A DNA stretch of 51,144 nucleotides from positions 1 through 51,144 of the forward strand of contig JBBRSO010000005.1 of assembly GCA_038245405.1 (NCBI GenBank), in the 5' to 3' direction. How positions within the stretch are numbered: the stretch's first letter is position 1; the number at the start of each line of letters is the position of its first letter. Position numbers and translations under genes: made by a program. The notes under the pieces were generated by a model. The model searched no databases, was not told where the DNA came from, and worked only from the letters and a program-made list of their open reading frames with translations. Of this stretch, positions 13,398 through 33,229 are shown piece after piece. Origin of the DNA: Bacteroidales bacterium (GTDB taxonomy: Bacteria > Bacteroidota > Bacteroidia > Bacteroidales > VadinHA17).

Positions 13398-13565
13398 TTA
13401 CATGAACTTCTCCCGTTTCTGTAGATTAAACAACGCTACCAGCAGAAAAACCAGCGATCCGGCAACAAGGATAATCCTGTTTTTAAATGTGATGATAGCC
13501 CAGGTTGTTTCATTTACATCGCGCGGCAATTCGTAGGGATTAAGAAAGACATTCCACTGACTTTT
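13398..13565 (-). repeat. Right copy of the 168-bp direct repeat (attR-like); forms the functional 3' end of the ABC-2 permease gene
   Basis: 165 of 168 nt identical to 1623-1790. Homology starts exactly at the stop codon and ends at codon ~183 of the permease. Confidence 0.85.
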
Positions 13566-14114
13566 ACCAAGAGCATCGCTGAGTGTCAGGAAAAAGAGAC
13601 CGAAGATGATCATTAATACTGCTGTTCCATTTCCATTTCTGACAACTGTAGAAAGCATGAATGCCATAATACCAAGAAAAATTACAGGAAACATTACCTG
13701 CATTGTCACATTCACAAACCGGAACTTTACGATGAGCACTGAAGAAAGAAATGTAAATACGAGCATTATCAGGAAAGCCACGATAAAGATCAGTAATACT
13801 CTCACAAGCCATACTTTATACCTGTAATTCGGAATACCGAACAGGATCTCAATTGTTCGGGCATCCTGGTCATTCTGTATACCAAAAACGGTGGGATAAA
13901 AAATCAGCAGGACTCCTGAAAACAGGAAAACGCCATACAGATCACGCATATTTGAAACATCCTGGTCGAACACATAGATAACCGATAAGCCGAGATAAAA
14001 CACTACTGAGCCAGCCAGGAACCAGATAAATCTGTTTGCAAAAATTATCCTCAGGTTATATACAACCATTTTTTGTACCAGATTAAGAAAATTGTATAAG
14101 TTTCGCGATCTCAT
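13398..14114 (-). CDS. ABC-2 type transporter permease
   Basis: 238 aa with ~6 hydrophobic helices. It has an ABC-2-like conserved acidic loop (QDARTIEILFGIP). Its ATG overlaps the stop of the upstream RND::ABC gene (ATGA at 14111-14114). Confidence 0.7.
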   Translation of the reverse strand: MRSRNLYNFLNLVQKMVVYNLRIIFANRFIWFLAGSVVFYLGLSVIYVFDQDVSNMRDLYGVFLFSGVLLIFYPTVFGIQNDQDARTIEILFGIPNYRYKVWLVRVLLIFIVAFLIMLVFTFLSSVLIVKFRFVNVTMQVMFPVIFLGIMAFMLSTVVRNGNGTAVLMIIFGLFFLTLSDALGKSQWNVFLNPYELPRDVNETTWAIITFKNRIILVAGSLVFLLVALFNLQKREKFM

Positions 14115-17100
14115 ATGCTTGCGTTTACATTGTTTTGTGGACTAAGGATCTCTTTTCTTCTTAGCAGCCAGAGATAAGCATCTTCAAGGTTTGGTGTTGC
14201 ATTAATAGCTCCTTCCCATGGTGATATTTCAGAAATAACCCTCACTCTGATATTTTCACCTTCCGACATGTGATGCACTACAAGATGGCTCTCCACAAAT
14301 GTTCCAAAATCTTTTGCAGGAATGTTGAATTGCCATACATGGCCTTCTGCTTCCTTTGTCATAGCAATTGGTTCCCCGAAATACCTTAGCTTGCCTTTAT
14401 TCAGTACTGCAACTTTTTTACAGGAGCTCGAGATATCCTCAATAATATGGGTTGAAAATATTACTATCCTGTCGCGGCCGAGCTCAACAAGCAGATTCCT
14501 GAATCTGATGCGTTCCCGTGGATCGAGACCAGCGGTGGGTTCATCAACAACAAGAATACGTGGCAGATGAAGAAGAATCTGTGCAATTCCCATTCTTTGC
14601 TTCATACCACCGGAATAGGATCCGATTTTTTCATGACGCCGCTCTTCCATATGAACAGATTTGAGAACATATGTCACGCGTTCTTCCCTGGTTTTGACAT
14701 CGGTTATATTTTTGAGCATAGCCTGGTAATGAAGGTAATCATGAGCAGTCATGTTCTCATAACTTCCAAATTCCTGCGGTAGATATCCAATCAACCCCTG
14801 CAGCTCTTCCCGCATCTTCTGTGTATCGAGACCATTTATCCACACCTTTCCATAGCTCTGTTCAAGAATACCGCAGATAATTCTCATAAGTGTAGTTTTT
14901 CCCGCGCCATTCGGGCCCAGCAGACCGAACATACCGTTTCCGATATTCAGTGAAACGCAACTCAATGCCTTGAATGGCTTCTTCTTCTTACCAATAAGTG
15001 GAACAACTGCTACCACCTTATAGATATTCTTCCTCAAACCTTTGAATCTTCCTTCAAGCCTGTAAATGTCGATGTTTTCTTTTGTAAGCTTCTGTCCGGT
15101 TTTAAAGATAAACAACCCGGTGAACCATAGAAAACCAAGTATTATAACAATAACGATATTGTCCCATTTGTGATAAAACCATAATAGATTCAGAAACGGG
15201 ATTATCCAGAAGATGACTGAATCAAAGATTTTTGAGAATCTGGCCAGCCACCTCTTTTTACCACCGGAAGTAAGATTGTCTATCAGCTCACTGAATGAAG
15301 TCCAGATAGATGACAGAAAAAACCATGTTACAATTGCGAAAACAAAAATCCAGAATCCTTTCTGCAAATAAAAATATGTGAAGTAGAAAATATATCCAGC
15401 CAATGGAATCTGCCAGCCTATCTGAGTCATATCCTTTAAAGACCTGAATTGTTTTTGCAATCCCAGTCTTTTCCTTATACGTGCTCCTGCCTTCCATTCG
15501 CGTGACCATCTGTTTTCCCGTTCATAGATCTTCACCAGACTTTGTATCCTGATGTTGATACTTTCGTCAGGGGAGATTACGGTTTCCCTCGCTTTTTTCA
15601 GGCTGTTCATCACAAACCATGTTCCCGCGGGGACTAATATTATTGAGATGATGGAGGTAATAAGCTTCCAGAGGAACTTATCGACATTCAGGTAGATTAG
15701 CGCTATAAGGAAAGTAAATAGGATAATCTGGATTGTTTTGTTTTTCCAGGGAAGCGAATTGAACCATTTAAGTGCATTTTCGAGACCCGTATAGAATGTG
15801 GGAATAAAAACCAGTGTAAGAAGGGTACTCAGAGTAAGTCCGCCAATCACGGTAATGGCAAATGAAGCACCGATAACTGAAACAAATTCAGCCTTGCCCA
15901 TCGCCAGCGGGATCATAGCAATCACAGTTGTAGCTGCCGTAATCAGGATAGGACGCAATCTGGAAACACCGGCTGTCATGAGAGCTCTTTGTACCCTGTA
16001 GCCACGCTTTCTTAAAATATTTGTATAGTCTATGAGAATAATTCCATTATTCACAACCACTCCCAGCAAGATTAAAAAGCCTGTGAGTGTATTGAGGTTT
16101 AAGAGTGAGTTCCCGGTCAGTATAAGAGCAACGAGTGAGCCAAGAGCTGCAAGAGGGATGCTGAACATAAGAACCACAGGGGTTGCAAGCGATTCAAACA
16201 CTGAAGCAAGGATCATGTAGATCAATAGGAATGCGACACCGATTATGAAATACAGATCTTTCCACTTATCTTCTTCATGAACAACTTCGACGGCAATACC
16301 GGCAGGTATATTCAACCCTGATACAATTGATTCAATATCGGCCCTTGCACCTGCCAGCAAGTCTTTTGAGTTTTTTATCTCCTCATTAAAATCGTATGTA
16401 ACGGTAATTCGTTTTTCCTGGTTTTCCCTGTGAATGCTGCCCATTCCTGAAGCAAATACAATTTTTGATAATTCATCCATTTCGATTACTGCACCATTGC
16501 TCCCATTAACCAGCAGGTGTTTCAGGTCGTCTATTGTTTTGTCTTTTTTCTCTTTCGATTCGCCAGGCTCATCAGCATACTTAATCATAATATCATAATT
16601 ATCTGTGCCCTGTCTGAACTGTATTCCTGAAGAATACTCGCGACCGAATGTTGAAAGTGCCGAGGAAAGATTTAATAATGTAAAATTGTTTCTTCCCAGG
16701 TAATCCATGTCAAAGAGGAGATGAACCTCAGGTTTATTTTCCTGGATATTTATTCTGGAAGTGTTCATTGAAGAAAGACTTCCTACTGAAGCTTTAATAT
16801 CATTAGCCAGATTTTTCATCTGTACAAAATTCTGGCCTTTTATGATTACACTTTCTTTGGTGGAACCTAACCCGAGCAAATTCATAAATTCATCTCCCTC
16901 GCCATCTCCGCCTCCCATGTTATCACCGCCTGAAAATCCACCGCTGGAAGATTGCTCGTCCATGCTTATTTCAGCCGATGTGATATTCTTTACCTTCTTA
17001 AGGATATCACTCTTAATTTCAGGAAGTGTCCTTTTGCTATTCTTATCCCATTCTTTCTTAAGATTAATTGTGATAGTGGCTTTTTCCTCTTCAATACGAC

Positions 17101-18880
17101 TCACTACGTCTTCCTTCTCAGGCAGAGAAACAAGTCGTGATTCAACTTCTGCAACAACAGCATCAGTTTTTTGCAAGGGTGATCCTCCGGGCATTGTTAC
17201 TGTGAGTCTGAAAACAGGTGTCTGAACCTCCTGGGATGTGCTGATGCTCAGGGCCAGACTTATAAGAAGAGTGGCAAAGAAAACTATGAGAGTGCCAATG
17301 ATTGTTGAGGCAGGCTTTCTCATGCTTGCTTTTAAAATGAGGTGGTAGCCCTGGATCACCCTGTTATGGATAGAGAGTTTTTTGAAGATTTCAGAATTTG
17401 TTCCTGAGCTCCGGGTGAGCAGGAAATAGGTTGCCATTGGGATGAAAAGCAGCGATACAGAGAGTGATACAGCGAGAGTCGAGATGATAGAAATACCAAT
17501 ATTTTTGCCAATTATTTTTATCATATAATTATTGGCAAAGATAAATGGCATGAAAACGATCAGAGTAGTGAGCGTTGAGGCGAAGACCGACCGCCAGACT
17601 TCAATTGTACCTTGCTTTACAGCTGTTTCGGGATCTTTGCCCTGACCGGCGAGGCGATATATATTTTCCAGAACAACAACAGAATTATCTACCAGCATAC
17701 CTATAGCCAGGGCCATTCCGACCAGTGTAAGACTGTTTATTGAAATATCGTAAGCGTAGAAAAAGTTGAAAGCAGCATAAACCGACACTGGAATAGAGAC
17801 TGCGATAATGGCTACCAGGCGAATATTCCTCAGGAAAAACCACAAAATCAGAATAGCCAGAACACCGCCTGTGATGGCAAGATCGATTATCTGATTTATA
17901 TTTTTTTCCATTATCTCAGAGTTATTGTTCTGGACAACAATCTCAACTCCTGATGGCGCGAGTGTTTTATTCAATTCAGCTATCTCTTTTATAGTAGTGT
18001 GTGAGAGATTTATAAGATTTGCCTGGTTATCATTGGCAAGGGAGATTGTGACAGCATCGAGCCCGTTTACCCTGCTATAAGAGCTCTGTTCCTTTACTCC
18101 GAATACGATCTCAGCAACATCCTTAAGTAAAACCGGACCAGTGGTTTTAACAATCAGATTACCAATTTCTTTTACATCGGTATATTCTGACGAGACGTTT
18201 ACAAAGAGCTGATTGCTTCCATCATAAACCTTGCCGGCAAAAGCCCGCTTTGCTCCATTATTATTAAGAAGATTCCGAACTTCACCAATAGAAATACCGT
18301 TAGCTTTGCATGCTCTCTCATTCAATCGGATCTCGATTGAGTTTTCCATTCCTCCATAAACCTGTAATCCGGCAATACCGTCAATATTTTCAAGATGAGG
18401 CTTTATCTCACGGTCTGCAATGTTTCTTATCCTGTCTATCCCGCCTTCACCGCGAACCTGGAGTGTCATAAACTGATTTGTCAGTTCCTTCAGATCTATT
18501 TTTATCACATTGATAAAGAATTCAGAAGGAATCGAGTTCTTAACGATATCAATTTTCTCCTGAAGTTTCAGATTTGCATATTTCAGGTTAGCATTCTGAT
18601 TATAGTATATGAATATATTACCGCTATTTGAATTGATATTCGTCTCGATTTTTTCAACTCCCTCGAGTGTGCCTATTGCGCCTTCAATAGGTACAATAGC
18701 CTGTGTCTCAATATACGATGGATCTTTCTCAATAGGTGTTGCCACCTGTATAATTAAAAATGGAAGCTGCGCATTCGGAAGGAGTTCAACAGGAAGCTTT
18801 TTATAGGATACATAGCCGAGCAAGGTGAGCCCGAGGAAGAGCATACTTATAAAAATTCTTCGTTTTAAAATAAAATTCAT
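14111..18880 (-). CDS. RND (AcrB/HAE-type) efflux permease fused to six extra TM helices and a C-terminal ABC transporter ATP-binding domain
   Basis: Uninterrupted 1589-aa ORF. The RND body runs from aa 1 to ~1032 (...LVFIPTFYTGLE at 15782-15814). Walker A GLLGPNGAGKTT lies at 14894-14932, the signature SGGMKQRMGIAQ at 14579-14620 and Walker B ILVVDEPTAGLD at 14522-14560. The C-terminal domain is paralogous to that of the 297-aa ATPase. Confidence 0.85.
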   Translation of the reverse strand: MNFILKRRIFISMLFLGLTLLGYVSYKKLPVELLPNAQLPFLIIQVATPIEKDPSYIETQAIVPIEGAIGTLEGVEKIETNINSNSGNIFIYYNQNANLKYANLKLQEKIDIVKNSIPSEFFINVIKIDLKELTNQFMTLQVRGEGGIDRIRNIADREIKPHLENIDGIAGLQVYGGMENSIEIRLNERACKANGISIGEVRNLLNNNGAKRAFAGKVYDGSNQLFVNVSSEYTDVKEIGNLIVKTTGPVLLKDVAEIVFGVKEQSSYSRVNGLDAVTISLANDNQANLINLSHTTIKEIAELNKTLAPSGVEIVVQNNNSEIMEKNINQIIDLAITGGVLAILILWFFLRNIRLVAIIAVSIPVSVYAAFNFFYAYDISINSLTLVGMALAIGMLVDNSVVVLENIYRLAGQGKDPETAVKQGTIEVWRSVFASTLTTLIVFMPFIFANNYMIKIIGKNIGISIISTLAVSLSVSLLFIPMATYFLLTRSSGTNSEIFKKLSIHNRVIQGYHLILKASMRKPASTIIGTLIVFFATLLISLALSISTSQEVQTPVFRLTVTMPGGSPLQKTDAVVAEVESRLVSLPEKEDVVSRIEEEKATITINLKKEWDKNSKRTLPEIKSDILKKVKNITSAEISMDEQSSSGGFSGGDNMGGGDGEGDEFMNLLGLGSTKESVIIKGQNFVQMKNLANDIKASVGSLSSMNTSRINIQENKPEVHLLFDMDYLGRNNFTLLNLSSALSTFGREYSSGIQFRQGTDNYDIMIKYADEPGESKEKKDKTIDDLKHLLVNGSNGAVIEMDELSKIVFASGMGSIHRENQEKRITVTYDFNEEIKNSKDLLAGARADIESIVSGLNIPAGIAVEVVHEEDKWKDLYFIIGVAFLLIYMILASVFESLATPVVLMFSIPLAALGSLVALILTGNSLLNLNTLTGFLILLGVVVNNGIILIDYTNILRKRGYRVQRALMTAGVSRLRPILITAATTVIAMIPLAMGKAEFVSVIGASFAITVIGGLTLSTLLTLVFIPTFYTGLENALKWFNSLPWKNKTIQIILFTFLIALIYLNVDKFLWKLITSIISIILVPAGTWFVMNSLKKARETVISPDESINIRIQSLVKIYERENRWSREWKAGARIRKRLGLQKQFRSLKDMTQIGWQIPLAGYIFYFTYFYLQKGFWIFVFAIVTWFFLSSIWTSFSELIDNLTSGGKKRWLARFSKIFDSVIFWIIPFLNLLWFYHKWDNIVIVIILGFLWFTGLFIFKTGQKLTKENIDIYRLEGRFKGLRKNIYKVVAVVPLIGKKKKPFKALSCVSLNIGNGMFGLLGPNGAGKTTLMRIICGILEQSYGKVWINGLDTQKMREELQGLIGYLPQEFGSYENMTAHDYLHYQAMLKNITDVKTREERVTYVLKSVHMEERRHEKIGSYSGGMKQRMGIAQILLHLPRILVVDEPTAGLDPRERIRFRNLLVELGRDRIVIFSTHIIEDISSSCKKVAVLNKGKLRYFGEPIAMTKEAEGHVWQFNIPAKDFGTFVESHLVVHHMSEGENIRVRVISEISPWEGAINATPNLEDAYLWLLRRKEILSPQNNVNASI

Positions 18881-18900
18881 TCCCTGTATTATAAAGAAAT

Positions 18901-21900
18901 TTATGAACTCTTCACAGACTCATTATTTACACCTCTTACCCAACTGCTGAAGGTATCGAACACCCAATATACACATGGAATAACAATAAGTGTAAGCAGG
19001 GTAGATGAGACTAGTCCTCCGATAACTGCAAGGGCCATAGGGGCTCTTAGCGATGCACTGTCACCAATTCCGATGGTAAGCGGCAAAAGTGCGAGTATGG
19101 TAGTCAGGCTGGTCATGAGTATCGGTCTTATCCTTTGTGTTCCGGCAGTTACTATTGCCTCTTTTTTCGAAATACCCTTTTCCCTGAGCTGGTTTATCCT
19201 GTCAATAAGCAGAATTGCATTATTTACAGCAATACCTCCAAGCATAATTATACCAATGTAAGCCATCATATTCAGGGATTTTCCAAATATGAAAAAAGTA
19301 ATCACAGTACCTACACCGGCGAGCGGAATAGTAAGCATTATTACAAATGGTTGAATAATTGATTCAAATTCGGCAGCTAAAACCATAAAAACGAGCACTA
19401 GTGATAAAATTAGTGCGAAAGTCAGATTCTTGTTTGACTCCTTACGTTTCCGTTCTTCTCCGCTTATAACCATTTTATAATCAATTGGCAGTATAACCTC
19501 TTTGAGTGACGCTTCTGCGCTTTTTACAACGTGATCGAATGCTGTATTCGCACTTACCATTGCATTTATATAGCAGATCCTGTCCTGGTTTTTCCTTGTG
19601 ATTTCCCGCGGACTTACTATTGTTTTAATTTTGGCAAGCTCACTTAGAGGTACTTTTATACTGCCTGCAGTAATCAGGAGATCGCGAAGCTGATTAAGAG
19701 AGATCTTGCCAAGCTTTATGGTAATATCTTTCATCTCACCATCCTTTTCAAAACTGCCTGCAGAAGATCCGTCAAGAAAACTTTTCACCTGGTTTATAAC
19801 AGTTTCAGCCGTGACATTATAGTAGCTGGTCTTAAACTTATCGATAGCTACTTCTACCTCCGGTGTACCCTGATCGATCGACGTCGTGATATTATATAAC
19901 CCGGGATTCTTCATCAGTATAACTTTGGCTTCGTTCACAATTCTCTCAAGCTCGTCATAATCTTCTCCCGATACTTCGAGTGTGAATGGGGCTTCAGATG
20001 TCCCGAGCGAAGTCTGCAGTGCAGTTTCTTCCCTCGTAAAACTTGTTTCCAGATCGGGGATAGTTTTCAGATAATTGCCTATGAGAGTAATTGCATCTTC
20101 CGTTTTTTTCGCAAACCCCTTAGCGAGGATGATCTTTAATGATCCTGTATTATCGCCTTTGGTTACCCCGGTATTCAATAATGATGTATTGTCGGCTCCT
20201 GCCTGGGAGTATATCATTTCAATTTTTTCGCCGAGAATTTCTCTTACAATCCCCTCCGTTTTCGTAATAGTGCTTGAGGTTCTTTCCAGACTTGTACCTT
20301 CCGGTAATCTGATATTCAGTGTAAACTCTGCAGATTCTGATTTAGGCATGAATTCGCTTCCCAGCCTGGGTATTAACATCACAGTCAAACCGAGTAGTAA
20401 AACTGAAACAAGAATGACAAGTTTCCGCTTTTCAACTATTTTCTCTAGGAGTCTTTTATACCAGCTAAAATCCACAGGGATGGTGGTATCAACATTTTTC
20501 TTTTTGTCGGAGAAAAACGTTGAAACCAGCATAGGAATCACAAGCATTGCTATTACTAGAGATGAGAGCAGCGAAAAAGCAACTGTCCAGGCCTGATCCT
20601 TAAACATTTCTCCTGATGCTCCGTGAAGGTAAACAATAGGCAGAAAAACCACTATCGTAGTAAGAGTAGATGAAGTTATTGCAGATCCAACTTCCCCGGT
20701 TCCACGTATTACTGCTTCGCGCAAACCAACTCCTTCTTCACGCAAACGGGTAATATTTTCGAGAACAACAATTGCATTATCCACAAGCATTCCTGCACCG
20801 AGAGCCAGACCACCAAGTGTCATGATGTTCAATGTAAGATGATTGAAGTACATAAGGTTGAAGGTGGCAATGATTGAAATTGGTATCGCAACGCTGATAA
20901 CCAGAGTGGTGCCAATTCTCCTGAGGAAAACATATAGTACAAGCACTGCCAGAAGAATTCCTATTATGAGTGTGTTTTTTACTTCTCCTATTGCATTATG
21001 GATATATGCTCCCTGGTCCTGGACTCTTATAAACTCATAACCGGGTAAGGCTTTCCCGAGGGTGGTGATCTCTTTTGAAAGACTCTTTACTACATCAACA
21101 GTATTAAATTTTGGTTCTTTGTAAATTGATAAGCCAACACACCTCTCACCATTAATCCTGACAATGTTTTCCGGCTCTTTATTTGCAAATTTCACTGTAG
21201 CTACATCTCTAAGATAAACAGGCACTTTATCAGATGGTGCTTGTGTTGTTAAAGCTGAACTTCCGGAAGAAGATAACGTCGATGCTGCAGAAGACTGTTT
21301 AAAACCTACAACGATGTTTTCAAGATCATTAAGGTCCTTAAGAACACTAACCCCTTTTACCACATATTTAAGCCCCATATCAACTATGGTGCCGCCTGAT
21401 ACGTTTCTGTTGTAATTAGCAATCTGTAAAGCTATGGCATCGACATTGAGACCGAAAGATTCGAGTATGTACTTATTGGTTTCTATAACAACTTCACTCT
21501 CTTCTATTCCGGTAAGCCTTACATCGGCAACACCCTCAATACGGACCAGCTCATTTCTGATATAATTCTCAGCTATTTTTCTGAGTTCTTCCATATTTGA
21601 TATGCTGGAATTTTTCAGTCCTACAATCATAACAGGGGTAGCGTTCGGATCATATTGTGATATCGTGAAGCTCTCGAGATCGGAATTCTGACGAAATGTA
21701 TTCAGCTCTTTCTGAAGATCAAGGAATGCCTCATCCATATCCTTGTTCCAGTCATATTCTACCGTTATGGTGGCTGTTCCAACCTGCGACACAGATGATA
21801 CCTGAAGGACATCGCTTTGACGGGTAGCCAGAGACTCAATCTGTTCAACGTAATTTTTTTCTATCTCCTCCGGCGGTTTTTGTCCGGCTTTCAGTTCTAT

Positions 21901-22041
21901 ATATATCTTTGGGTTATTGAGGTCGGGAAATAAGTCAGTCCCGAGCTTACCGAAAGATATAAACCCCAGCAGAACAATCCCGAGAACAAGCATTAATACT
22001 GTGACCGGGTATTTTACAGCAAATTGAGCAATCCTGTTCAT
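18901..22041 (-). CDS. Efflux RND transporter permease subunit (AcrB/CzcA superfamily)
   Basis: 1046 aa with the typical ACR_tran N-terminus MNRIAQFAVKYPVTVLMLVLGIVLLGFISFGKLGTDLFPD and 12-TM organisation. Its start overlaps the adaptor stop (TAATG at 22039-22043). Confidence 0.9.
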   Translation of the reverse strand: MNRIAQFAVKYPVTVLMLVLGIVLLGFISFGKLGTDLFPDLNNPKIYIELKAGQKPPEEIEKNYVEQIESLATRQSDVLQVSSVSQVGTATITVEYDWNKDMDEAFLDLQKELNTFRQNSDLESFTISQYDPNATPVMIVGLKNSSISNMEELRKIAENYIRNELVRIEGVADVRLTGIEESEVVIETNKYILESFGLNVDAIALQIANYNRNVSGGTIVDMGLKYVVKGVSVLKDLNDLENIVVGFKQSSAASTLSSSGSSALTTQAPSDKVPVYLRDVATVKFANKEPENIVRINGERCVGLSIYKEPKFNTVDVVKSLSKEITTLGKALPGYEFIRVQDQGAYIHNAIGEVKNTLIIGILLAVLVLYVFLRRIGTTLVISVAIPISIIATFNLMYFNHLTLNIMTLGGLALGAGMLVDNAIVVLENITRLREEGVGLREAVIRGTGEVGSAITSSTLTTIVVFLPIVYLHGASGEMFKDQAWTVAFSLLSSLVIAMLVIPMLVSTFFSDKKKNVDTTIPVDFSWYKRLLEKIVEKRKLVILVSVLLLGLTVMLIPRLGSEFMPKSESAEFTLNIRLPEGTSLERTSSTITKTEGIVREILGEKIEMIYSQAGADNTSLLNTGVTKGDNTGSLKIILAKGFAKKTEDAITLIGNYLKTIPDLETSFTREETALQTSLGTSEAPFTLEVSGEDYDELERIVNEAKVILMKNPGLYNITTSIDQGTPEVEVAIDKFKTSYYNVTAETVINQVKSFLDGSSAGSFEKDGEMKDITIKLGKISLNQLRDLLITAGSIKVPLSELAKIKTIVSPREITRKNQDRICYINAMVSANTAFDHVVKSAEASLKEVILPIDYKMVISGEERKRKESNKNLTFALILSLVLVFMVLAAEFESIIQPFVIMLTIPLAGVGTVITFFIFGKSLNMMAYIGIIMLGGIAVNNAILLIDRINQLREKGISKKEAIVTAGTQRIRPILMTSLTTILALLPLTIGIGDSASLRAPMALAVIGGLVSSTLLTLIVIPCVYWVFDTFSSWVRGVNNESVKSS

Positions 22042-23093
22042 TACTTAATAATTTTAACCTTCGACTTATTGCTGAGAGTCTCAAAGCCGGTTGTAACAAT
22101 CCGCTCATTTTTAGTCAACCCTTTTGTAACCTCAACATCTGACAGATTTTCAAGTCCTGTTTCAATAATTCGTTCAACGGCCACACCCCTGTCAACAACA
22201 AAGACGGTCTTCCCCCGCTGGCGTGATAAGATTATATTCTTAGGGATTACAATAACCGAATCCTTGTGATTTATGACGATATCGGCTTTTACAAACATCC
22301 CGGGACGCATTCGGTAATCCGGATTATTTATTGAGATATTTCCTTTGAATGTTCTTGTCTCAGCATTTATTGCAGGCGATAACTGGGTAATGTTTCCGAT
22401 GATAGTATCCTCGGGAATGGTATAGTTTGTCAGCTTTACAATTTGTCCCGGCTTTATTTCAGAAATATATTTTTCAGGAAGCTGGACTTCCATATACATT
22501 GTCAGGTAGTTCATGATCTTAGCTATTGAAGAACCGGTCTCAACCTGGGTGCTCTGTGTATAGTAAGGCAGATCAACTATTACCCCGTCAATTGGAGCAA
22601 CAATTTTTGTTTTGTCAAGCTGAAGCTTTGAATTCTCAACAGTGGTTTTTGCATTTTCATAATTTATACCGGCTGTCTTGAGCTCTTTCAATGTTACCCC
22701 GCCTTTTTCATAGAGAGATTCTTCTTTTTTGAGTTCACTCTCTGTAAGCTCAAGATTCAGCTGATTGGTCTCCATCTTTATGGAGTTAACATATTCCCTG
22801 TCTTCAAGACGTGCGATAAGAGCTCCTGCTTTAATTTTATTACCCAGTTGCCATAACCTACCTGTTTCCGGATTTTTTTCAAGAAAATATGAAGCAGAGA
22901 TCCTTGATTTTAACGTAACCTCCCCTGCAGGGAAAGCAGTCCCGGTGGTGTTTATAAATTCTTCAATCGACTTCAACTTTATCGTTTCAACCGAAACCGG
23001 AATTTCAACATCAGCAGCTAGATTCTGTTCCTTGTTCCTGCAGCCTGTAATTGCAAAAAATGCAAATGCAATAATGAAAATACTTTTTCTCAT
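22041..23093 (-). CDS. Efflux RND transporter periplasmic adaptor (membrane fusion protein, HlyD/AcrA family) lipoprotein
   Basis: 350 aa with the lipoprotein signal MRKSIFIIAFAFFAITGC. It has a coiled-coil segment and a beta-barrel C-terminus (IVPKNIILSRQRGKTVFVV). It lies between the TolC and RND genes. Confidence 0.85.
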   Translation of the reverse strand: MRKSIFIIAFAFFAITGCRNKEQNLAADVEIPVSVETIKLKSIEEFINTTGTAFPAGEVTLKSRISASYFLEKNPETGRLWQLGNKIKAGALIARLEDREYVNSIKMETNQLNLELTESELKKEESLYEKGGVTLKELKTAGINYENAKTTVENSKLQLDKTKIVAPIDGVIVDLPYYTQSTQVETGSSIAKIMNYLTMYMEVQLPEKYISEIKPGQIVKLTNYTIPEDTIIGNITQLSPAINAETRTFKGNISINNPDYRMRPGMFVKADIVINHKDSVIVIPKNIILSRQRGKTVFVVDRGVAVERIIETGLENLSDVEVTKGLTKNERIVTTGFETLSNKSKVKIIK

Positions 23094-23103
23094 TTTATTA
23101 TAA

Positions 23104-24594
23104 TTATTGTTTGTCTAGGGTCAATACTGGTGTAACCATTTCTTTTTTCTCAAAATCATAAAGCGTCTGGATTTTGAGATTCAGAAGTTCAAGTTTATAT
23201 GATATCAATGAATTTGTATATGTTAACTGCTTCTCAGAAAGCTGATTCTGGAATAAGTTGAGATCCATGCCTGTCAGATCGCCATTTTTATATCTCTCGA
23301 GATTGAGATCATATGTGAGCTGTGCATTTACAACGTTCTGACGCGCAATCTCTATCTGGTTGCTTAGATTGAGAAGATTCCTGTAAACCTTTCGGATGTC
23401 GATAATTATATTGTTCTTCTCTTCATCAAGTGATATCTGTGATGTGGCTATTGTGGCTTCCGAAGCCTTTATCATCGACTTTCTTCTTCCCCAGTCCCAC
23501 AAGGGAATTTCGAGCGACAGACTAACTACTTCATTATCTGTCCGGCTTTCTTTGTCATAAACATTCTGGAATTTTTCATTGTCTCCGAATAGACCCAGGG
23601 ATAAACTAAGATTCCCTTTAAATTCATTCATTGCTTTGGTGCGAACGAGATCGAATTGTGAAGTCTCAATATCGATCTTTCTCTGACGCAGCTCCATTCT
23701 GTTTTTCAAACCCTGATCAATAGCAAATGAAATATTCACTGAAACAGTATCTACGGCTATATTGGGGATTACAACGAGATCCTCATAAAGGCTCATGCCT
23801 ATTAATAATTTAAAATCATCTTTGGCATTCTCAAATGAAACCTGTCTGTTCTCAAAATCTGATTTTGCCGTGGCAAGGTTTAGTTCAGCCTGAAACATCT
23901 CTTCTTTTGGCGAAATGCCTGCATCTACCTTGTTCTTGGATACCTCGTAGGATTTAAGCATATTCTGATATGCCTGGTTTGCTATTTCCATACTTTTTTG
24001 CTGCTGATAGACATAATAAAATGCCTGTGTGACTCCCTTTTCCAGGGACAGAAGCTGTATGGCATAATTTAACTGGGTGTTCTCAAGAGCCAGCTGAAGT
24101 TCCTTAAGATTAAGCTTTGTTTTGTTGTAGGTGAATAAAGGCTGATCGAGATTGATAGCAAGATTATTGCTGAATCCTTTTTGCTGCTGTGTAGCGAACT
24201 GGCTGTAGCTATCGAGATAACCAAAGGTATTGGTAAGTGAAAGGGTTGCATCGGTAACCAATATAGGCTGTCGCACCGAAAAAGTTCCATATGTCTGAGT
24301 TTTCCGCTGGCTGTTATAGTCGGAGATAAGGTCGTTGAATACTCTGTCGCGGCTATAACTGAAAGGAGTGAGCAAAAGGGCGAACTGCGATTTGAGAGAT
24401 GCATTCTGTGCATTAAGGTTTTCCTGGCTCCTGATCAGACTAAGTCTGGTCTTCTTCATTGAAGGGCTATTGAGCTCAGCAACACTCAGACTTTGCTCAA
24501 GTGTTAAACCCTGTTGCGAAAATGCTGTCACGCAAGTCAATAGCATAAAAATAATTGACAAATTTATTTTCATTATCGTACTGGTGTTTTTCAT
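23104..24594 (-). CDS. TolC-family outer membrane efflux protein
   Basis: Signal peptide MKNTSTIMKINLSIIFMLLTCVTAFSQQ, then LTLEQSLSVAELNSPSMKK and an internally duplicated OEP-type sequence. The track start at 24657 (MGGLPRRRKNL...) looks like an overcall. ATG at 24594, or alternatively 24573, is more plausible. Confidence 0.8.
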   Translation of the reverse strand: MKNTSTIMKINLSIIFMLLTCVTAFSQQGLTLEQSLSVAELNSPSMKKTRLSLIRSQENLNAQNASLKSQFALLLTPFSYSRDRVFNDLISDYNSQRKTQTYGTFSVRQPILVTDATLSLTNTFGYLDSYSQFATQQQKGFSNNLAINLDQPLFTYNKTKLNLKELQLALENTQLNYAIQLLSLEKGVTQAFYYVYQQQKSMEIANQAYQNMLKSYEVSKNKVDAGISPKEEMFQAELNLATAKSDFENRQVSFENAKDDFKLLIGMSLYEDLVVIPNIAVDTVSVNISFAIDQGLKNRMELRQRKIDIETSQFDLVRTKAMNEFKGNLSLSLGLFGDNEKFQNVYDKESRTDNEVVSLSLEIPLWDWGRRKSMIKASEATIATSQISLDEEKNNIIIDIRKVYRNLLNLSNQIEIARQNVVNAQLTYDLNLERYKNGDLTGMDLNLFQNQLSEKQLTYTNSLISYKLELLNLKIQTLYDFEKKEMVTPVLTLDKQ

Positions 24595-24775
24595 ATTTAT
24601 AGTGATAAAGATTTTTGTTTTCTTTAAGTTCTTTCTCCTCCTCGGCAACCCCCCCAACCTCCATTTGGGGAGCTTTCAGCCTTTGAATTTCTCTGTGTAA
24701 CTCTGCGTCTCAATAGCTATCGGGGCTCAGTGTAAGTTCTTTTTTCTTATCAACCTCAGCCTCAGTTTCAGCCTC

Positions 24776-27700
24776 CTAGTTCTGCTTCACCCATTTGATT
24801 GCATCTCCAATCACAATCCTTCCCGACGATTTATTTGTAAGTACCACCCTTGCCGAATCTTTCGACAGATAATATCTGCCCAGATTATTCCATCCGCCAT
24901 CGGCTTGCATATAATCAATTGAAATATCGTCAACTCCTTCATCGTGGTAAACTTTAAAATGAAGATCCTTTATCTGATTGTCTCTATCTGAGTTATCTTC
25001 ACCGTCATCCTGATCTCCTCCTTTGACCTGCATCCTGTCAATTGTTTTGCCTATGTAGCAGTAAATATCATAATATCCTTTTCCGGTGATGGGAGTCATC
25101 CATGTAACAGATTTATCGCCTGATCCTGATCTTGTGTATATTGCCGACCTGATGTATTTACCATAATATGATGTAAGCACAACAGGTTGCCAGTACTCAG
25201 GAGTATTCCAATTGCTTATTTTCATATACGTGTTCCCATTCCTGTTCTTTACCCTAAGGAATTTTTTAAGTGGGCTTGTGGTATTTTGTTTGCTTGAAAT
25301 AAATCCCGGATCCTCGTTATCTACAATTATTTCAGATGGATCCGAAAACAGGGGCATTGAAAGAAGCGTTTCCTCTCCTGAGAACTCTTTGCTCTCACCC
25401 TTTGATTTTAATATTTCGGTGAAAGGAAACTCGATATCACCGGGAATATTTTTTGCCACGAGAGTATTTATCATCATTGTCCGTGGTTCCGCATCTAGTA
25501 CAATACCGATCCTTTTTGCTTCACGGGGGGCGAGGAATATAATCCTGGAGATATCTTCCGCATCCATGCCACGGCCTTTTTGAGAAAGACTGATTTTTTC
25601 ATCTGAAACTTTCTGACCACCCGTTTTGAACGATACATTGAACAAGCCTGCAACGGCTTCAGGGTTAGAAGCAATAAATGTGACCTGGTAGCGTGAACGA
25701 TCATCAACAACAATTTCAGTTGCTCTCAGACTAGTAAATAAGAACCCGGGTTGATCCTTGCTGTTATACCATGAATCGAGTGATGAAATGAAGTCAAATC
25801 CAAACTTTGCTTTTACATCAGAATAGAATTTTTGAATATTGATATTTTTAAACTGGTTATTATCAATGTATTCAGAAAACCACGGTTTGAATTCATTTAA
25901 TCCGGCTTTTGACCTTAAGAGGTTAAATAACCAGTCACCTTTTACAGTCAATACGTTTCGTAAAGTATCTTCTGATGGATTTTTTGATAAAAGTTCTTTG
26001 AAGCTAATATTCCTGAGTATGAGGTTCGCCTTATCGTTGTCTGATAGAACTCCCATCCCTGTCCTGAAATCATTGTTTTCATCGCCAGTTGTAAGGTGCT
26101 GAAGATGGGATTCAAACACTGCATTTATAACAGGGTATTCGGAAGAATAGAAGTTATTTTTAAAGAAATAGAAACTCGGACCAAGTCGGTATCTTGTAGG
26201 CTCGTTCAACATAATACCATTTTGCCATCTGAAATTTTCGCCACTTATAAATGCATTCCTGATACACCCATTGAATATCCTTACTTCCAGCTCTTTGTCG
26301 GTGATCACTTCATTGTTACGCGCCATCCGTCGCTTCTGATTTTTGAATCTCTTATGAAAGCCTGCATTATCAATTGTAGATAACTTCTCAGGAAGAAGTA
26401 CCATTGATGGTTGCACTTCTGCCCGTGTCTGTGTGTTTTTTTTAGGATAGGAATAGAATTGAACCGGAACCTCAACAAGACTAAGGGTTTTATATGGATA
26501 CTTTGTAGAAAAATTGGTTTCAAGTTCGCGCATTAAACCGGAAACCAGTGTCGGAAGAGTGTCTTTTAACTCACTCAGATCTTTTTTATAATAATCATTC
26601 CCCGGAAAATGGTAACTAATATAATCGATGGAGTCAACTGTGAGAGTATCTGACATATAGTTCCCCATCACAAGGGTTAATCCGGAAAGCGGGTTCTCAG
26701 ACCTGAAAAGATTGTAGCCGTTTTCAGTTGTCATTCTTCCCTGCGATATTGGCGAAAGACCTGGCTCGGTTTTGACATGCAATGTATACCTGGTAAAATC
26801 GAGTTTTATCTTTGCAGGGTTGGCAGGATAATAGTTGAGACTTGTTACAGGGTACCAGTGGGTCTCTGGCGTTAATAAGACATAATTTTTCTCAAGGAAT
26901 GACTGTCTTTTATTGACGTTCATCATAATAATCCTGTAGGGAGCAAGTCGCACATTGTCACTGTAGTATGGATAACAGAATGATTCGTTAATTGTACCGG
27001 AGTAGGAAATCACTACACTGTCAGAGGAGCCCGGATTGAGTAACTTGCCACTCTCAATTTCAATGATCTGATTTGTCCTGGTATATTTCAGATCAACTCC
27101 ACCTGAAGAGACCTTTTGAACTGCGAGTGATGGGTTTAACGAGAATAGGTACCGATCGAGGGCCGAGCGGTTTTCATTTATTATTTTTAGATTGGCGGTA
27201 GCTTCCATGGTTTCACCCTTATGGATAAATGTTATGTCAGCATCTGTTATTGTAGCGAAATTCTGATTTTCAAATTTCCTGTTTGTTTCAATAACTTCCT
27301 TCTTGAAATCTCTGGAAATACTGTATTCATAATATGTACGAAAACCAAAGATCGCTGTCCCTGCTGCAAATGCAACCATAAAAATTACTGTAAATACTCT
27401 CTGTATGCGTGATTGGGGCAATCGTTTGAATAACAAGACTGTTGCAAGTACCAGCGCCATGCCAGCGAAGAAATACATGAGTCTTTGACTAACAATAGCG
27501 CTTAGATTATCAAAACCAATTATGCCTGATTTGAATATGGGCATGCCGAAGGCCATGTAATCAAAAATATTCCCCATTCTGAACCACAGATAGAATATGT
27601 TGAGTGCAGCATAACCAAGAAGTACAAGAAATGTGATTGCCTGATTCCTGATAACCGACATTAAAAAGAATGCTAGGCCGAGGCTGTATATTATAGTAGG

Positions 27701-28165
27701 GACTGATAGAATGAGAAGATACCAGAGGTACGACATATAGTCAATTGTCATAGTCGTAGAGATAATGTTAACGATCATACCCATTGCAAGAACGACTATA
27801 TTAAGCCCCAGGAATAAACGCAGTATGCCCCAGGTCTTACCGATGATATACTCCAGATTCGACATCGACCTGGTGTATAATACTTCGTTGGTATCTAGTT
27901 TTTTATCTCTTTTAAGAAAGTCAGCCGCAAGGAAAATCACCACAAATGCCTGACCAATATTCAGAAGATAAAGATTCATCAGTGGTACTGAGGAAGGAAA
28001 TGAAACCAACTCCCAGGGCTCATCTCCTATGGGTGAGAAAAAACCTATGTTTATTATAGTAAAGATAAACAGCGCTCCCAGTGCGAAGAGCCTGAAGAAC
28101 CAGCTTCTTCTAAGTGTCTTCGCCTCATACCTGGCAACAGTTTTTATATTATTAAGAAATGCCAT
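24776..28165 (-). CDS. ABC-2 type permease (N-terminal ~280 aa, multi-TM) fused to a ~850-aa extracytoplasmic domain
   Basis: 1129 aa. The N-terminus MAFLNNIKTVARYEAKTLRRSWFFRLF... has 6-7 hydrophobic helices and an ABC-2-like loop (KLDTNEVLYTRSMSN). The rest is hydrophilic. The gene sits 13 nt downstream of the ABC ATPase gene. Confidence 0.7.
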   Translation of the reverse strand: MAFLNNIKTVARYEAKTLRRSWFFRLFALGALFIFTIINIGFFSPIGDEPWELVSFPSSVPLMNLYLLNIGQAFVVIFLAADFLKRDKKLDTNEVLYTRSMSNLEYIIGKTWGILRLFLGLNIVVLAMGMIVNIISTTMTIDYMSYLWYLLILSVPTIIYSLGLAFFLMSVIRNQAITFLVLLGYAALNIFYLWFRMGNIFDYMAFGMPIFKSGIIGFDNLSAIVSQRLMYFFAGMALVLATVLLFKRLPQSRIQRVFTVIFMVAFAAGTAIFGFRTYYEYSISRDFKKEVIETNRKFENQNFATITDADITFIHKGETMEATANLKIINENRSALDRYLFSLNPSLAVQKVSSGGVDLKYTRTNQIIEIESGKLLNPGSSDSVVISYSGTINESFCYPYYSDNVRLAPYRIIMMNVNKRQSFLEKNYVLLTPETHWYPVTSLNYYPANPAKIKLDFTRYTLHVKTEPGLSPISQGRMTTENGYNLFRSENPLSGLTLVMGNYMSDTLTVDSIDYISYHFPGNDYYKKDLSELKDTLPTLVSGLMRELETNFSTKYPYKTLSLVEVPVQFYSYPKKNTQTRAEVQPSMVLLPEKLSTIDNAGFHKRFKNQKRRMARNNEVITDKELEVRIFNGCIRNAFISGENFRWQNGIMLNEPTRYRLGPSFYFFKNNFYSSEYPVINAVFESHLQHLTTGDENNDFRTGMGVLSDNDKANLILRNISFKELLSKNPSEDTLRNVLTVKGDWLFNLLRSKAGLNEFKPWFSEYIDNNQFKNINIQKFYSDVKAKFGFDFISSLDSWYNSKDQPGFLFTSLRATEIVVDDRSRYQVTFIASNPEAVAGLFNVSFKTGGQKVSDEKISLSQKGRGMDAEDISRIIFLAPREAKRIGIVLDAEPRTMMINTLVAKNIPGDIEFPFTEILKSKGESKEFSGEETLLSMPLFSDPSEIIVDNEDPGFISSKQNTTSPLKKFLRVKNRNGNTYMKISNWNTPEYWQPVVLTSYYGKYIRSAIYTRSGSGDKSVTWMTPITGKGYYDIYCYIGKTIDRMQVKGGDQDDGEDNSDRDNQIKDLHFKVYHDEGVDDISIDYMQADGGWNNLGRYYLSKDSARVVLTNKSSGRIVIGDAIKWVKQN

Positions 28166-28178
28166 AGGTTAGTGCTTA

Positions 28179-29072
28179 TTAGTCAGAGATTTCGGTATGT
28201 AATTTATGCTCCATGAAATATACATACGCATGCTCAATATTCGGGATAATGTTTGTATAGGGGAATTCAGGAGCATTATCTGATACTATCTGAACTTCCC
28301 AGCCGGATTCTACAGGTATGGTGGAGATTACATTATAGTTCTCTTTTACCTTCTCATAATCAGTAGGGTTTAGAGTGAGTTTAAACACGTGACCCACAGC
28401 ATGTTTTACCAGTGTTTCAGGTGAGCCGGTAAATACAAGCTCGCCTTTGTTAAGTAGCGCCATTCCCTGACATGTAGAGGAGATATCTCCGACGATGTGT
28501 GTCGACAGGATTATAGTTACATCGTGCTGGCTTAATTGTGAAAGGATATTTCTGAATCTGATACGTTCATCGGGGTCGAGGCCTGTAGTAGGTTCATCAA
28601 CGACGATTAATCTTGGATTCCCGATAAGTGCCTGAGCTATGCCGAGACGTCTTTTCATTCCTCCTGATAATCTGTTTGCCTGCCGGTCGCGAACTTCCAG
28701 CAGCCCTACCTGATCCAGTAAGCGATCTACCTCCGTTATTCTTTCTTTTTTATTTTTCAAACCGGCCAGAGACCCTGAATAATCGAGGAACTCCCAGGTC
28801 TTCAGTGAAGTAAAAAACCTGAAATCCTGTGGAAGATAGCCAAGCATGGCTCTGAGCTCTTTCCTGTTTTTCTGAATATCTTTTCCATCAACAAGTACCA
28901 TTCCTGAGGAAGGTTTCATTAGAGTTACAAGAATCCTCATCAGACTCGATTTCCCTGCTCCGTTAGGACCAAGTAAACCGAACATGCCATTTCCGAACTC
29001 AAGATTAATATTCTTTAGCGCATGGTTGCCGTTAGGATATATCTGGTTTAGGTCGTGAATCTCAATTTTCAT
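28179..29072 (-). CDS. ABC transporter ATP-binding protein
   Basis: 297 aa. Walker A GLLGPNGAGKSS, signature LSGGMKRRLGIAQ and Walker B LIVVDEPTTGLDP are present. Confidence 0.9.
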   Translation of the reverse strand: MKIEIHDLNQIYPNGNHALKNINLEFGNGMFGLLGPNGAGKSSLMRILVTLMKPSSGMVLVDGKDIQKNRKELRAMLGYLPQDFRFFTSLKTWEFLDYSGSLAGLKNKKERITEVDRLLDQVGLLEVRDRQANRLSGGMKRRLGIAQALIGNPRLIVVDEPTTGLDPDERIRFRNILSQLSQHDVTIILSTHIVGDISSTCQGMALLNKGELVFTGSPETLVKHAVGHVFKLTLNPTDYEKVKENYNVISTIPVESGWEVQIVSDNAPEFPYTNIIPNIEHAYVYFMEHKLHTEISD

Positions 29073-29401: not shown

Positions 29402-30655
29402 GTGGTCTATCTGACAAACAAGCGAAAAATTATCAACGATCCTGTTTATGGATTTATAAGCATTCCGGGAGATTTCGTTTTCGACCTTATAGAACACCCA
29501 TGGTTTCAGAGACTTAGAAATATCAAGCAACTCGGGCTCACAAGTTTTGTGTATCCGGGGGCAACACACAGCAGGTTTCAGCACGGACTTGGCGCGCTAC
29601 ACCTGATGAACATGGCGATCGCCACCTTGCGCGACAAGGGTGTAAAGATTTCTGCTGAAGAAGAAGAAGCTACTCTGATAGCAATACTTCTTCATGATGC
29701 CGGACATGGACCATTTTCTCATGCACTCGAGAATTCAATAATAAGCGGAATAACACATGAAGACATTTCGCTTCTGCTTATGAAAAAGCTTGATGAAGAG
29801 TTTTTTGGAAGGCTCACGCTTGCAATTGACATATTCACAGGAACCTATCCAAGAAAATTTTTGCATGATTTGATCTCAGGTCAGGTGGATATGGACAGAC
29901 TTGATTACCTGAGGAGGGACAGTTTTTTTACCGGAGTGATCGAGGGCACAGTAGGTTCAGACAGGATAATAAGAATGCTAAATGTTATTGATGACAGTTT
30001 GGTTGTTGATGAGAAAGGGATCTACTCAATCGAAAAATTTCTTATTGCCCGAAGACTCATGTACTGGCAGGTTTATATGCATAAGACGGTTATTTCTTCA
30101 GAGAGTCTGCTTGTTAACATACTCAAACGGGCGAAAGAATTAGCAGATAGCGGATTTGAGCTTTATGCAACTCCGGCGTTGAGATTTTTTCTTTTTAATA
30201 ATGTTGGTCCTGAAGATCTGCTATCTGATGGAAAGTTTACTCCTGGTCTGATCGCCACAAACTTTACCAGGTTAGATGATTCTGATATAATGGTAGCGGC
30301 AAAATACTGGGCAGACCATTCCGATAAAGTTCTTTCTGATCTCTCGGGCAGACTACTGAGGCGAGATCTTTTCGCAATAGAATTGCAGAATGAACCGTTT
30401 TCTGATAAAAGAGTGAATGATTTGCGGAACCTTGTGAGGGATCAACTGGATGCAAAAGCAGGACTTGAGGGATATTATGTTTATACGAACAGCATCTCAA
30501 ATCTGGCATATACGCCTGATGCACCCATCGTTAATATACTTCTGAAAACTGGAAAAACTGCCGATATTTCAACTGTTTCGGATATGTTTGACCACAGATT
30601 TCTCTCTGAAAGAATTACAAAATACTTTCTATGTTATCCAAAAGAATGTCGATAA
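29402..30655 (+). CDS. HD domain-containing phosphohydrolase (dNTP triphosphohydrolase-like, COG1078 type)
   Basis: 417 aa. It has THSRFQHGLGALHL, LLHDAGHGPFSH and DMDRLDYLRRD motifs. The start is GTG and remains uncertain. The gene lies upstream of lpxD. Confidence 0.8.
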   Translation: MVYLTNKRKIINDPVYGFISIPGDFVFDLIEHPWFQRLRNIKQLGLTSFVYPGATHSRFQHGLGALHLMNMAIATLRDKGVKISAEEEEATLIAILLHDAGHGPFSHALENSIISGITHEDISLLLMKKLDEEFFGRLTLAIDIFTGTYPRKFLHDLISGQVDMDRLDYLRRDSFFTGVIEGTVGSDRIIRMLNVIDDSLVVDEKGIYSIEKFLIARRLMYWQVYMHKTVISSESLLVNILKRAKELADSGFELYATPALRFFLFNNVGPEDLLSDGKFTPGLIATNFTRLDDSDIMVAAKYWADHSDKVLSDLSGRLLRRDLFAIELQNEPFSDKRVNDLRNLVRDQLDAKAGLEGYYVYTNSISNLAYTPDAPIVNILLKTGKTADISTVSDMFDHRFLSERITKYFLCYPKECR

Positions 30656-30670
30656 TAAAAATTTAATCAT

Positions 30671-33221: not shown

Positions 33222-33229
33222 TAAATTTA

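Follow-up and report, generated by a model that had tools for sequence, protein, structure and literature searches.

Resistance-nodulation-division (RND) pumps are trimeric, ion-driven and capture their substrates in the periplasm, whereas ATP-binding cassette (ABC) exporters are dimeric, ATP-driven and capture theirs in the cytoplasm or the inner leaflet. The two are treated as separate solutions to efflux, and to our knowledge cooperation between them has so far only been inferred genetically. A gene cluster in a Bacteroidales bacterium of the VadinHA17 lineage raises the question of whether both can belong to one machine. The window studied here, i.e., the whole stretch of 51,144 nucleotides (nt) from contig JBBRSO010000005.1 (GCA_038245405.1), contains a cluster of seven open reading frames (ORFs), all on the minus strand between positions 13398 and 29072. 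They encode, in order, a free ABC ATPase (A), a big permease (B), a TolC-family outer-membrane factor (OMF; C), a lipoprotein adaptor (D), a first RND permease (E, hereafter RND1), a second RND permease fused to an ABC nucleotide-binding domain (NBD) in a single polypeptide (F, RND2::NBD) and a small permease (G). As read from the sequence, RND2 is covalently joined via six added predicted transmembrane (TM) helices to an ABC-2-type NBD with intact catalytic motifs. This fusion is co-inherited with an RND paralog, a lipoprotein adaptor, usually a TolC-family channel, a free paralogous ATPase and two ABC-2-like membrane proteins, and the hybrid recurs in at least three bacterial phyla. The seven genes may thus specify one hybrid trans-envelope exporter, in which a four-part ABC-2 unit is tethered to an RND/adaptor/OMF pump; we put the probability of this reading at roughly 0.45, somewhat below even.

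The fusion gene (14111..18880, minus strand, as are all cluster coordinates given below) encodes a protein of 1589 amino acids (aa), in which Pfam and NCBIfam profile searches of the window proteins placed ACR_tran at aa 2-1031 and ABC_tran at aa 1311-1450. The fusion of RND2 to an ABC ATPase, proposed in an earlier note on this DNA, is thus borne out by two domains in one continuous reading frame. Its RND2 portion (F1; aa 1-1035, 15776..18880) is an intact 12-TM RND permease, after whose C-terminus a hairpin of two extra helices, TM13 and TM14 (F2a; aa 1049-1093, 15602..15736), is predicted from hydropathy and the positive-inside pattern, and is conserved among relatives with the same long linker. 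Within the basic cytoplasmic stretch that follows lies a putative displaced β1 strand of the NBD, INIRIQSLVKIYE (F2b; aa 1108-1120, 15521..15559), which aligns with the first β-strand of the free ATPase, MKIEIHDLNQIYP, and with β1 of the short-linker fusions described below. When this strand was spliced to β2, the start of the match to the GldA profile moved from position 16 to position 2 with a gain of 5.3 bits, which gives the assignment modest support. Four further helices (F2c; aa 1158-1261, 15098..15409), predicted by hydropathy, form two hairpins with very short outer loops, and the β2 strand and Walker A come only after them. In other words, four membrane helices appear to be inserted into the NBD of the fusion, between β1 and β2. 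The NBD core and C-terminal domain (F3; aa 1296-1589 and stop, 14111..14995; ABC_tran E 4e-27) complete a protein with 18 predicted TM helices, whose topology places the NBD in the cytoplasm. In F3 all catalytic motifs are intact, and the Walker A, Q-loop, signature, Walker B and H-loop residues are invariant in the F3 alignment. It is also the most conserved segment of the cluster, with 64-92% identity in orthologues versus 33-76% for the linker. The possibility that the six extra helices constitute a cryptic ABC-2 membrane domain was discarded after hhalign comparison with the B and G profiles (E 0.14-0.96).

Could the fusion be an assembly or frameshift artefact that joins two neighbouring genes? 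The chance of this is practically negligible. In a large protein database, more than 120 protein clusters at 77-91% identity were found, all 1566-1606 aa long, all with PF00873 and PF00005, and derived from NCBI, ENA, JGI and Logan assemblies; the same architecture is present in hundreds of independent assemblies from these four sources. The linker is conserved and topologically coherent, and where loci from long-read metagenome-assembled genomes (MAGs) contain frameshifts (L023, L046, L050, L066), the errors break the fusion gene and do not create it. Relatives in which RND2 and the ATPase might be separate genes were also sought, but none of the candidates examined proved genuinely split: P0132 ends prematurely because its contig does, P0201, which lies on a long-read contig and overlaps an incomplete RND call, most probably reflects a frameshift, and P0164 is an N-terminally truncated fusion. 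With the linker and NBD (aa 1036-1589) as query against 1.84 billion representatives, the 150 best clusters at the 50% level contained about 35 full-length fusions, down to 33% identity, among them fusions from marine OM182-type Gammaproteobacteria and an Acidobacteriota contig. In public annotations these proteins appear as 'efflux RND transporter permease', 'ATP-binding cassette domain-containing protein' or 'hypothetical protein'.

Two side observations concern the extent of the family. Three fusion loci that are 51-76% identical to the Bacteroidales protein (L011, L044 and L053) come from MAGs labelled Chloroflexota, KSB1 and Glassbacteria, respectively. These labels probably reflect binning contamination rather than true hosts; the Acidobacteriota and Gammaproteobacteria fusions are far more divergent. 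In addition, four proteins, namely, P0141 (2621 aa), P0168 (3794 aa), P0174 (1692 aa) and P0250 (1642 aa), each contain three or four separate matches to the NBD query.

The fused NBD has a close relative within the cluster. Gene A (28179..29072) encodes a free ABC ATPase of 297 aa (ABC_tran E 1e-31) with Walker A GPNGAGKS, signature LSGGM, Walker B VVDEPT and H-loop STH. It is a DrrA/GldA-like ABC-2-type NBD with a C-terminal domain, although its scores against TIGR01188 and TIGR03522 stay under the cut-offs, and its orthologues are 60-92% identical. Over 273 aa, C-terminal domain included, it shares 43% identity with the fused NBD, and the motifs quoted in the earlier note in favour of their paralogy are present in both. 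Walker A, Q-loop, signature, Walker B with the catalytic Glu, and H-loop are found in A as well as in F3, and both exceed the ABC_tran cut-off. The two NBDs are also the best conserved parts of the cluster.

All seven ORFs of the proposed inventory were located on the minus strand as described, and the operon-like spacing attributed to them was confirmed by direct reading of the sequence, i.e., a TAATG overlap between the adaptor and RND1 genes, an ATGA overlap between the fusion stop and the start of G, and remaining junction gaps of 13 (A-B), 181, 10 and 20 nt. Gene C (23104..24594; 496 aa) matches Pfam OEP as two stretches (134.8 bits versus a cut-off of 22) and falls below the cut-off of the TolC subfamily model (92.8 versus 225 bits). 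Its reading frame can be extended to a TTG at 24657, and a signal-peptide-like N-terminus follows the ATG at 24594. Gene D (22041..23093) encodes a periplasmic adaptor (membrane fusion protein, MFP) that matches HlyD_D23 and exceeds the cut-off of TIGR01730 RND_mfp (185.4 versus 94.9 bits), and whose lipobox ITGC at aa 15-18, judged by eye, marks it as a lipoprotein.

Whether these genes belong together can be read from their co-occurrence. In a scan of one genome per species (185,579 species genomes), which reaches close relatives only, 53 fusion-encoding loci were found, nearly all in Bacteroidales/Bacteroidia MAGs and one in the cultured Splendidivirga corallicola BMA10. Synteny was judged by tblastn with the window proteins, with gene order read as far as contig DNA extends. 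For 41 loci the DNA reaches at least 10 kb upstream, and 36 of these show the window's order of ATPase, big permease, OMF, adaptor, RND1, fusion and small permease, down to 50% identity, the S. corallicola locus included. The other five comprise three with the same but fragmentary order and two (L027, L042) with the fusion only, followed by the small permease in L027; shorter contigs agree with the cluster order as far as they extend. In an Acidobacteriota UBA4820 genome (L065), an OM182-like gammaproteobacterium (L067) and a further locus (L070), the order is the same without the OMF, and the adaptor gene comes directly after B, with overlapping genes in L065 and L070; locus L071 has the conserved order with the OMF present. 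Some locus matches longer than 4.7 kb were considered as insertions, and were traced to cross-matching between the paralogs RND1 and RND2 and to frameshifted long-read assemblies; they contained no inserted ORFs. An arrangement found in dozens of genomes, across phyla and at identities as low as 50%, is far beyond chance, and because its flanks vary from lineage to lineage, conservation applies to the cluster as such. That the seven genes are one co-inherited unit, as the earlier note suggested, therefore holds, with both halves of the cluster together in 36 of the 41 loci.

The only large gap in the cluster, the 181 nt between B and the OMF gene (24595..24775), is not a conserved boundary, as it shrinks to 1-5 nt in the distant relatives L024, L026 and L048; its median over 35 loci is near 100 nt. 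Neither an Rfam family nor a terminator-like site on the minus strand was found within it, and the promoter/terminator scan, which does not model Bacteroidota promoters, was uninformative on operon structure. The most constant junction is the overlap between F and G, with a median of -4 nt across 31 loci.

A second architecture bears more directly on how the parts are combined. Short-linker RND-NBD fusions of 1389-1460 aa have a linker of about 100 aa without extra TM helices, and a β1-β2 gap of 30-55 aa that likewise contains no TM helices. The L061/L062 and L063 loci encode the same seven parts in the order adaptor, ATPase, small ABC-2 permease, RND1, a protein of about 900 aa, fusion, OMF. 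By BLASTP, the free ATPase, the fused NBD and RND1 of one architecture each find their counterpart in the other. For the membrane proteins, hhalign aligns the B membrane domain with that of the ~900-aa protein (92.5%, E 5e-7) and matches G to the small permease of the short architecture (72%, E 3e-5); the cross-pairs are weak. This orthology implies that the duplications of the NBD and of the RND permease predate the split between the architectures. The ATPase/permease adjacency is swapped: A-B and F-G are neighbours in long-linker loci, A-G and B-F in short-linker loci. This swap is our main argument, as it suggests a single unit made up of all four ABC parts rather than two fixed pairs.

It is instructive to set this against an arrangement of separate pumps that share an operon and an outer-membrane exit, namely, an A2B2 exporter, an RND1/RND2-adaptor-OMF pump and an F3(2)G2 module tethered to RND2, with neither an A-F3 heterodimer nor a direct hand-over of substrate. 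Such an arrangement would fit the window itself, where each ATPase adjoins a permease (the 13-nt A-B gap and the F-G ATGA overlap), the constancy of the F-G junction, the full consensus motifs of both NBDs, and the loci in which the fusion occurs without A-E nearby (L027, L042, L064). We nevertheless consider it unlikely. All seven parts are inherited together across phyla even where their order is completely reshuffled, the pairs of neighbours are exchanged in the short-linker architecture, and the covalent RND-NBD link is kept from 33% to 91% identity, which is hard to explain by co-regulation alone. Moreover, three NBDs on an RND trimer would not all be able to homodimerise. The 'two ABC modules' of the earlier note accordingly need to be reworded: two NBD paralogs do lie each beside a permease here, but with adjacency swapped in short-linker loci they may be the halves of one four-part unit.

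The membrane partners of the two NBDs are the least familiar components. B (24776..28165; 1129 aa), delimited by hydropathy and by profile matches of its orthologues, has about 6-7 N-terminal TM helices by hydropathy (aa 1-290, nt 27296-28165), and G (13398..14114; 238 aa), with six by the same measure, is a small putative ABC-2-like permease. Neither window protein matched an ABC2_membrane family in Pfam at E <= 0.01. Among the orthologues, the membrane domain of B matches ABC2_membrane_2 in 9 of 14 (best E 3e-6) and G matches ABC2_membrane_3 in 4 of 14 (best E 6e-4), all under the gathering scores. After TM1, G carries a motif, QNDxDARTIEILFGIP, that we take to resemble the ExxGTxExL motif of ABC-2 permeases; the number of TM helices likewise agrees with such a permease. 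B and G were also compared as possible close paralogs in the manner of A and F3; their similarity is marginal (hhalign E 0.17) and this relation was dismissed.

The description of B as a 'giant ABC-2 permease' applies to its ABC-2-like membrane domain, but not to the rest of the protein, an ectodomain of about 850 aa that resembles M1 peptidases without their catalytic motifs. A profile of 14 B orthologues matched the M1 aminopeptidase 3cia in the PDB over about 150 aa in the region after the zinc site (E 4e-6). The same profile matched the C-terminal domain of xanthan lyase, which corresponds to the Golvesin_C-like β domain at the C-terminal end of B (aa 1062-1126, nt 24788-24982; Golvesin_C E 1e-10). 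A Foldseek search with a low-confidence AlphaFold2 model of B (24-sequence alignment; predicted local distance difference test, pLDDT, 44) returned M1 peptidases for all of the top 50 hits, at TM-scores of at most 0.31. HExxH and GxMEN are absent from B of the window and from 15 orthologues, including proteins of the short architecture. The ectodomain is best described as a putative catalytically dead, M1-peptidase-like pseudo-peptidase scaffold.

The two RND permeases are complete. RND1 (18901..22041; 1046 aa, 12 TM helices) matches ACR_tran at aa 4-1028 over profile positions 1-1020 of 1021 (E 2e-219), and RND2 matches it at aa 2-1031 over positions 3-1018 of 1021 (E 5e-160). The 'MdtBC-like' label of the earlier note is apt for the architecture, two RND genes after one adaptor gene, and not for the proteins themselves: the two share 27% identity, RND1 reaches 363 bits with both NCBIfam models (cut-offs 1774 for MdtC and 1584 for MdtB), and RND2, at 267 and 244 bits with the same models, is likewise far below the cut-offs, although its best relative of solved structure is MdtB (9lyq). 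Both proteins contain a low-complexity insertion in a periplasmic domain, SSSGGFSGGDNMGGGDGEGDEF at aa 643-665 of RND2 (~nt 16886-16954) and a Ser/Ala/Thr-rich one at aa 249-270 of RND1 (~nt 21232-21297).

Judged over 42 orthologues, the TM4 Asp (AcrB D407) and the TM11 Arg (AcrB R971) are invariant in RND1, RND2 and all fusions tested, in both architectures, while at the positions of AcrB D408 (TM4) and K940 (TM10), RND1 and RND2 have Asn, as do nearly all orthologues and fusions. Neither RND permease thus has the full AcrB-type relay (D407, D408, K940, R971). The missing second TM4 Asp and TM10 Lys could be taken to mean that RND2 is powered or gated by ATP, with an NBD dimer that includes A acting on RND2 through TM13-18, B and G as accessories, and RND permeases that are not, or not only, ion-driven. 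Short-linker fusions, which join the NBD to the RND permease without extra TM helices, would suit such a scheme, as would the one such fusion that stands alone (L069), and the four-TM insertion inside the NBD might transmit motion. Yet the unfused RND1 shows the identical D-N / N / R pattern, which is therefore no evidence that the fusion replaced ion coupling by ATP. The invariant TM4 Asp and TM11 Arg are as expected under ion coupling, and ABC-2-like permeases accompany the fusion in nearly all contexts, which points to a conventional pairing of NBD and membrane domain. Direct powering or gating of the RND pump by ATP is consequently regarded as quite improbable.

In the single exporter that we favour, the four ABC parts would form one heterodimeric type-V ABC transporter, with A and F3 as NBDs and B and G as membrane domains, anchored to an RND2 protomer. 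ABC motors are dimeric and RND pumps trimeric, a mismatch that the free ATPase would resolve by serving as partner to each RND-linked NBD, however many of these the trimer contains. Powered by ATP, the ABC unit would extract an amphiphilic substrate, or flip it, out of the cytoplasm or the inner leaflet and hand it over where membrane and periplasm meet. The receiving RND1/RND2 porter, which may be a heterotrimer like MdtB2C, would in turn expel it through adaptor and OMF by means of an ion gradient, the driving force suggested by the invariant TM4 Asp and TM11 Arg. The pseudo-peptidase/carbohydrate-binding-module-like ectodomain of B probably binds the substrate or docks to the periplasmic assembly. 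Taken one step further, and more tentatively still, the system may represent a new class of tripartite efflux with two energy sources, in which an ABC-2 heterodimer is permanently docked to an RND trimer and extraction by ATP is mechanically coupled to ion-driven expulsion. Such a class would occur in Bacteroidota, Acidobacteriota, Gammaproteobacteria and other lineages, in two architectures.

Several points weigh against a single exporter. The case for it is drawn entirely from sequence and synteny. Because both NBDs have consensus sites, A2B2 and F3(2)G2 homodimers are equally feasible biochemically, and B and G match ABC-2 permeases only weakly. In some loci the partners are missing from the vicinity: within 10 kb, the fusion is accompanied by G only in L064 (where the fusion gene is that of P0194) and L027, by no recognisable G in L042, and by none of the other genes in L069 (P0216), which implies that F3 can be encoded away from A and B. 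The proton relay of the RND permeases is altered, and ion coupling is not assured. Finally, the AlphaFold2 models, i.e., that of B and that of the C-terminal 560 aa of the fusion (11 sequences; pLDDT 45), are with pLDDT values of 44-45 too poor to carry claims on interfaces or fold.

A hint at what such a machine might export comes from its genomic neighbourhood. On the other side of a 330-nt intergenic region, and divergent from the cluster, the window encodes a lipid A operon (29402-34003, plus strand) with an HD-domain protein, LpxD, an LpxC-FabZ fusion and LpxA. The adjacency to HD and LpxD genes recurs in seven close relatives (L015, L023, L030, L043, L046, L047, L050) and is not seen in distant ones. 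The other flank in close relatives contains what we take, by eye, to be a radical-SAM gene, rimP, nusA and infB; the flanks change completely in distant relatives.

Instead of xenobiotic efflux, the same machine might have a housekeeping role and export an envelope component made by the cell itself (a lipid, glycolipid, lipopeptide or polymer). The divergent HD-lpxD-lpxC/fabZ-lpxA operon and the presumed housekeeping genes rimP, nusA and infB, the latter indicating a core-chromosomal location, would agree with this, as would strong purifying selection (64-92% identity in the NBD), a non-catalytic ectodomain that resembles peptide- or carbohydrate-binding scaffolds, and the lack of a TetR-type regulator adjacent to the cluster. 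Conversely, the lpx adjacency was not seen in the distant loci L061, L063, L065, L067 and L070, the occurrence is patchy (53 of the 185,579 species genomes, in a scan confined to close relatives), and the closest profile families are multidrug-type RND permeases. A housekeeping role is for these reasons deemed rather unlikely.

Two downstream neighbours of the cluster were considered as possible members of the system and set aside. Between the cluster and a giant RHS-like gene, a 151-aa protein (12536-12991, minus strand) has a signal peptide and a type IX secretion system (T9SS) C-terminal sorting domain (Por_Secre_tail). The RHS-like gene itself (4306-12267, minus strand) is an ORF of 2653 aa with PKD/Ig, SpvB, FG-GAP, TcdB_toxin_midN and RHS repeats that looks like a Tc/RHS-type polymorphic toxin, and it is followed by two small ORFs without a Pfam match (3633-4346 and 2281-3084, both minus strand), possibly immunity genes. 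Neither the T9SS-tail protein nor the giant RHS-like protein is conserved beside the cluster elsewhere, and as the RHS-like block is absent at the same position in relatives, it looks like an insertion or rearrangement. On the far side of the lipid A operon, a 538-aa protein with DUF4140 and DUF4139 (35587-37203, minus strand) is unrelated to the cluster.

How does the cluster relate to known systems? Its parts belong to known families, namely, RND permeases, RND adaptors, OMFs and ABC-2-type NBDs, yet by their defining features the cluster lies outside the MdtBC, MacAB, GldA and M1-peptidase families. As in MdtABC-TolC and MuxABC-OpmB, two adjacent RND genes follow one adaptor gene and there is one OMF; here, however, one of the two RND proteins continues into six extra TM helices and an ABC NBD. 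With 27% identity between RND1 and RND2, the duplication must be much older here than in MdtBC/MuxBC. PMC7015380, citing Kim 2010, describes MdtBC as working as a B2C heterotrimer, and MdtB2C1 in that account is a precedent for mixed RND trimers.

The ABC side has its nearest parallels in YbhGFSR (for YbhFSR, see PMC7190983) and RbbA/YhhJ/YhiI of Escherichia coli, where an ABC-2-type NBD and two different 6-TM ABC-2 permeases are encoded with an MFP. YbhS and YbhR form a heteromeric pair, as is proposed here for B and G. These systems have neither an RND component nor a pseudo-peptidase ectodomain, and the NBDs of YbhF are fused to each other and that of RbbA to a permease, whereas here the NBD is fused to an RND pump. 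The 'MacAB-TolC logic' of the earlier note can be retained as an analogy, in that MacAB-TolC too is an ATP-driven tripartite pump with a lipoprotein-type adaptor, TolC and a large periplasmic domain on the membrane component. It does not extend to homology of the parts: in MacB, an N-terminal NBD precedes a 4-TM permease of the FtsX type (type VII), while the permeases here are 6-TM ABC-2-like, no FtsX or MacB_PCD domain was found by Pfam in the seven cluster proteins, and the adaptor belongs to the RND type (TIGR01730), scoring 47 bits with the MacA equivalog model, whose cut-off is 342.

Two more comparisons concern single parts. The GldA model (TIGR03522) is the best NCBIfam match of both NBDs, at 184 bits for A and 173-181 bits for F3, below the cut-off of 402.6. 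The GldA/GldF/GldG system resembles the cluster in being ABC-2-type, in its occurrence in Bacteroidota and in its large extracytoplasmic partner, but it lacks RND, adaptor and OMF parts, and no GldF or GldG homologues were detected in the cluster. By sequence profile and fold search, the ectodomain of B resembles M1 aminopeptidases such as LTA4H, ERAP1 and the two-domain M1 enzyme of D. radiodurans, from which it differs by the absence of the HExxH...E zinc site and of GxMEN and by its fusion to an ABC-2-like membrane domain.

No description of an RND-ABC fusion was found in the searchable literature, and the accessible part of a comprehensive 2021 review of tripartite pumps makes no mention of one. 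Inner-membrane transporters are known to potentiate trans-envelope pumps by moving a substrate to the periplasm or the outer leaflet, from which an RND pump expels it (PMC4338810). In the known cases of AcrAB-TolC-type HAE-1 pumps and their single-component partners these are separate proteins without a physical link, whereas here they are combined in one polypeptide, and by analogy the logic of the cluster is likely that of two-stage efflux made physical. Three sequence elements appear to be new, namely, the six extra TM helices after the RND portion, an NBD interrupted by a membrane insertion between its first two strands, and an ABC-2-like permease that bears a pseudo-M1-peptidase ectodomain. 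If coupling is confirmed, there is a real chance that this is a new class of pump. A fusion with fixed partners across phyla would provide a direct system for the passage of substrate from an inner-membrane transporter to a trans-envelope pump, and the same system would address how a dimeric motor is fitted onto a trimeric pump. Splendidivirga corallicola BMA10 carries it and is in culture, which opens the system to experiment.

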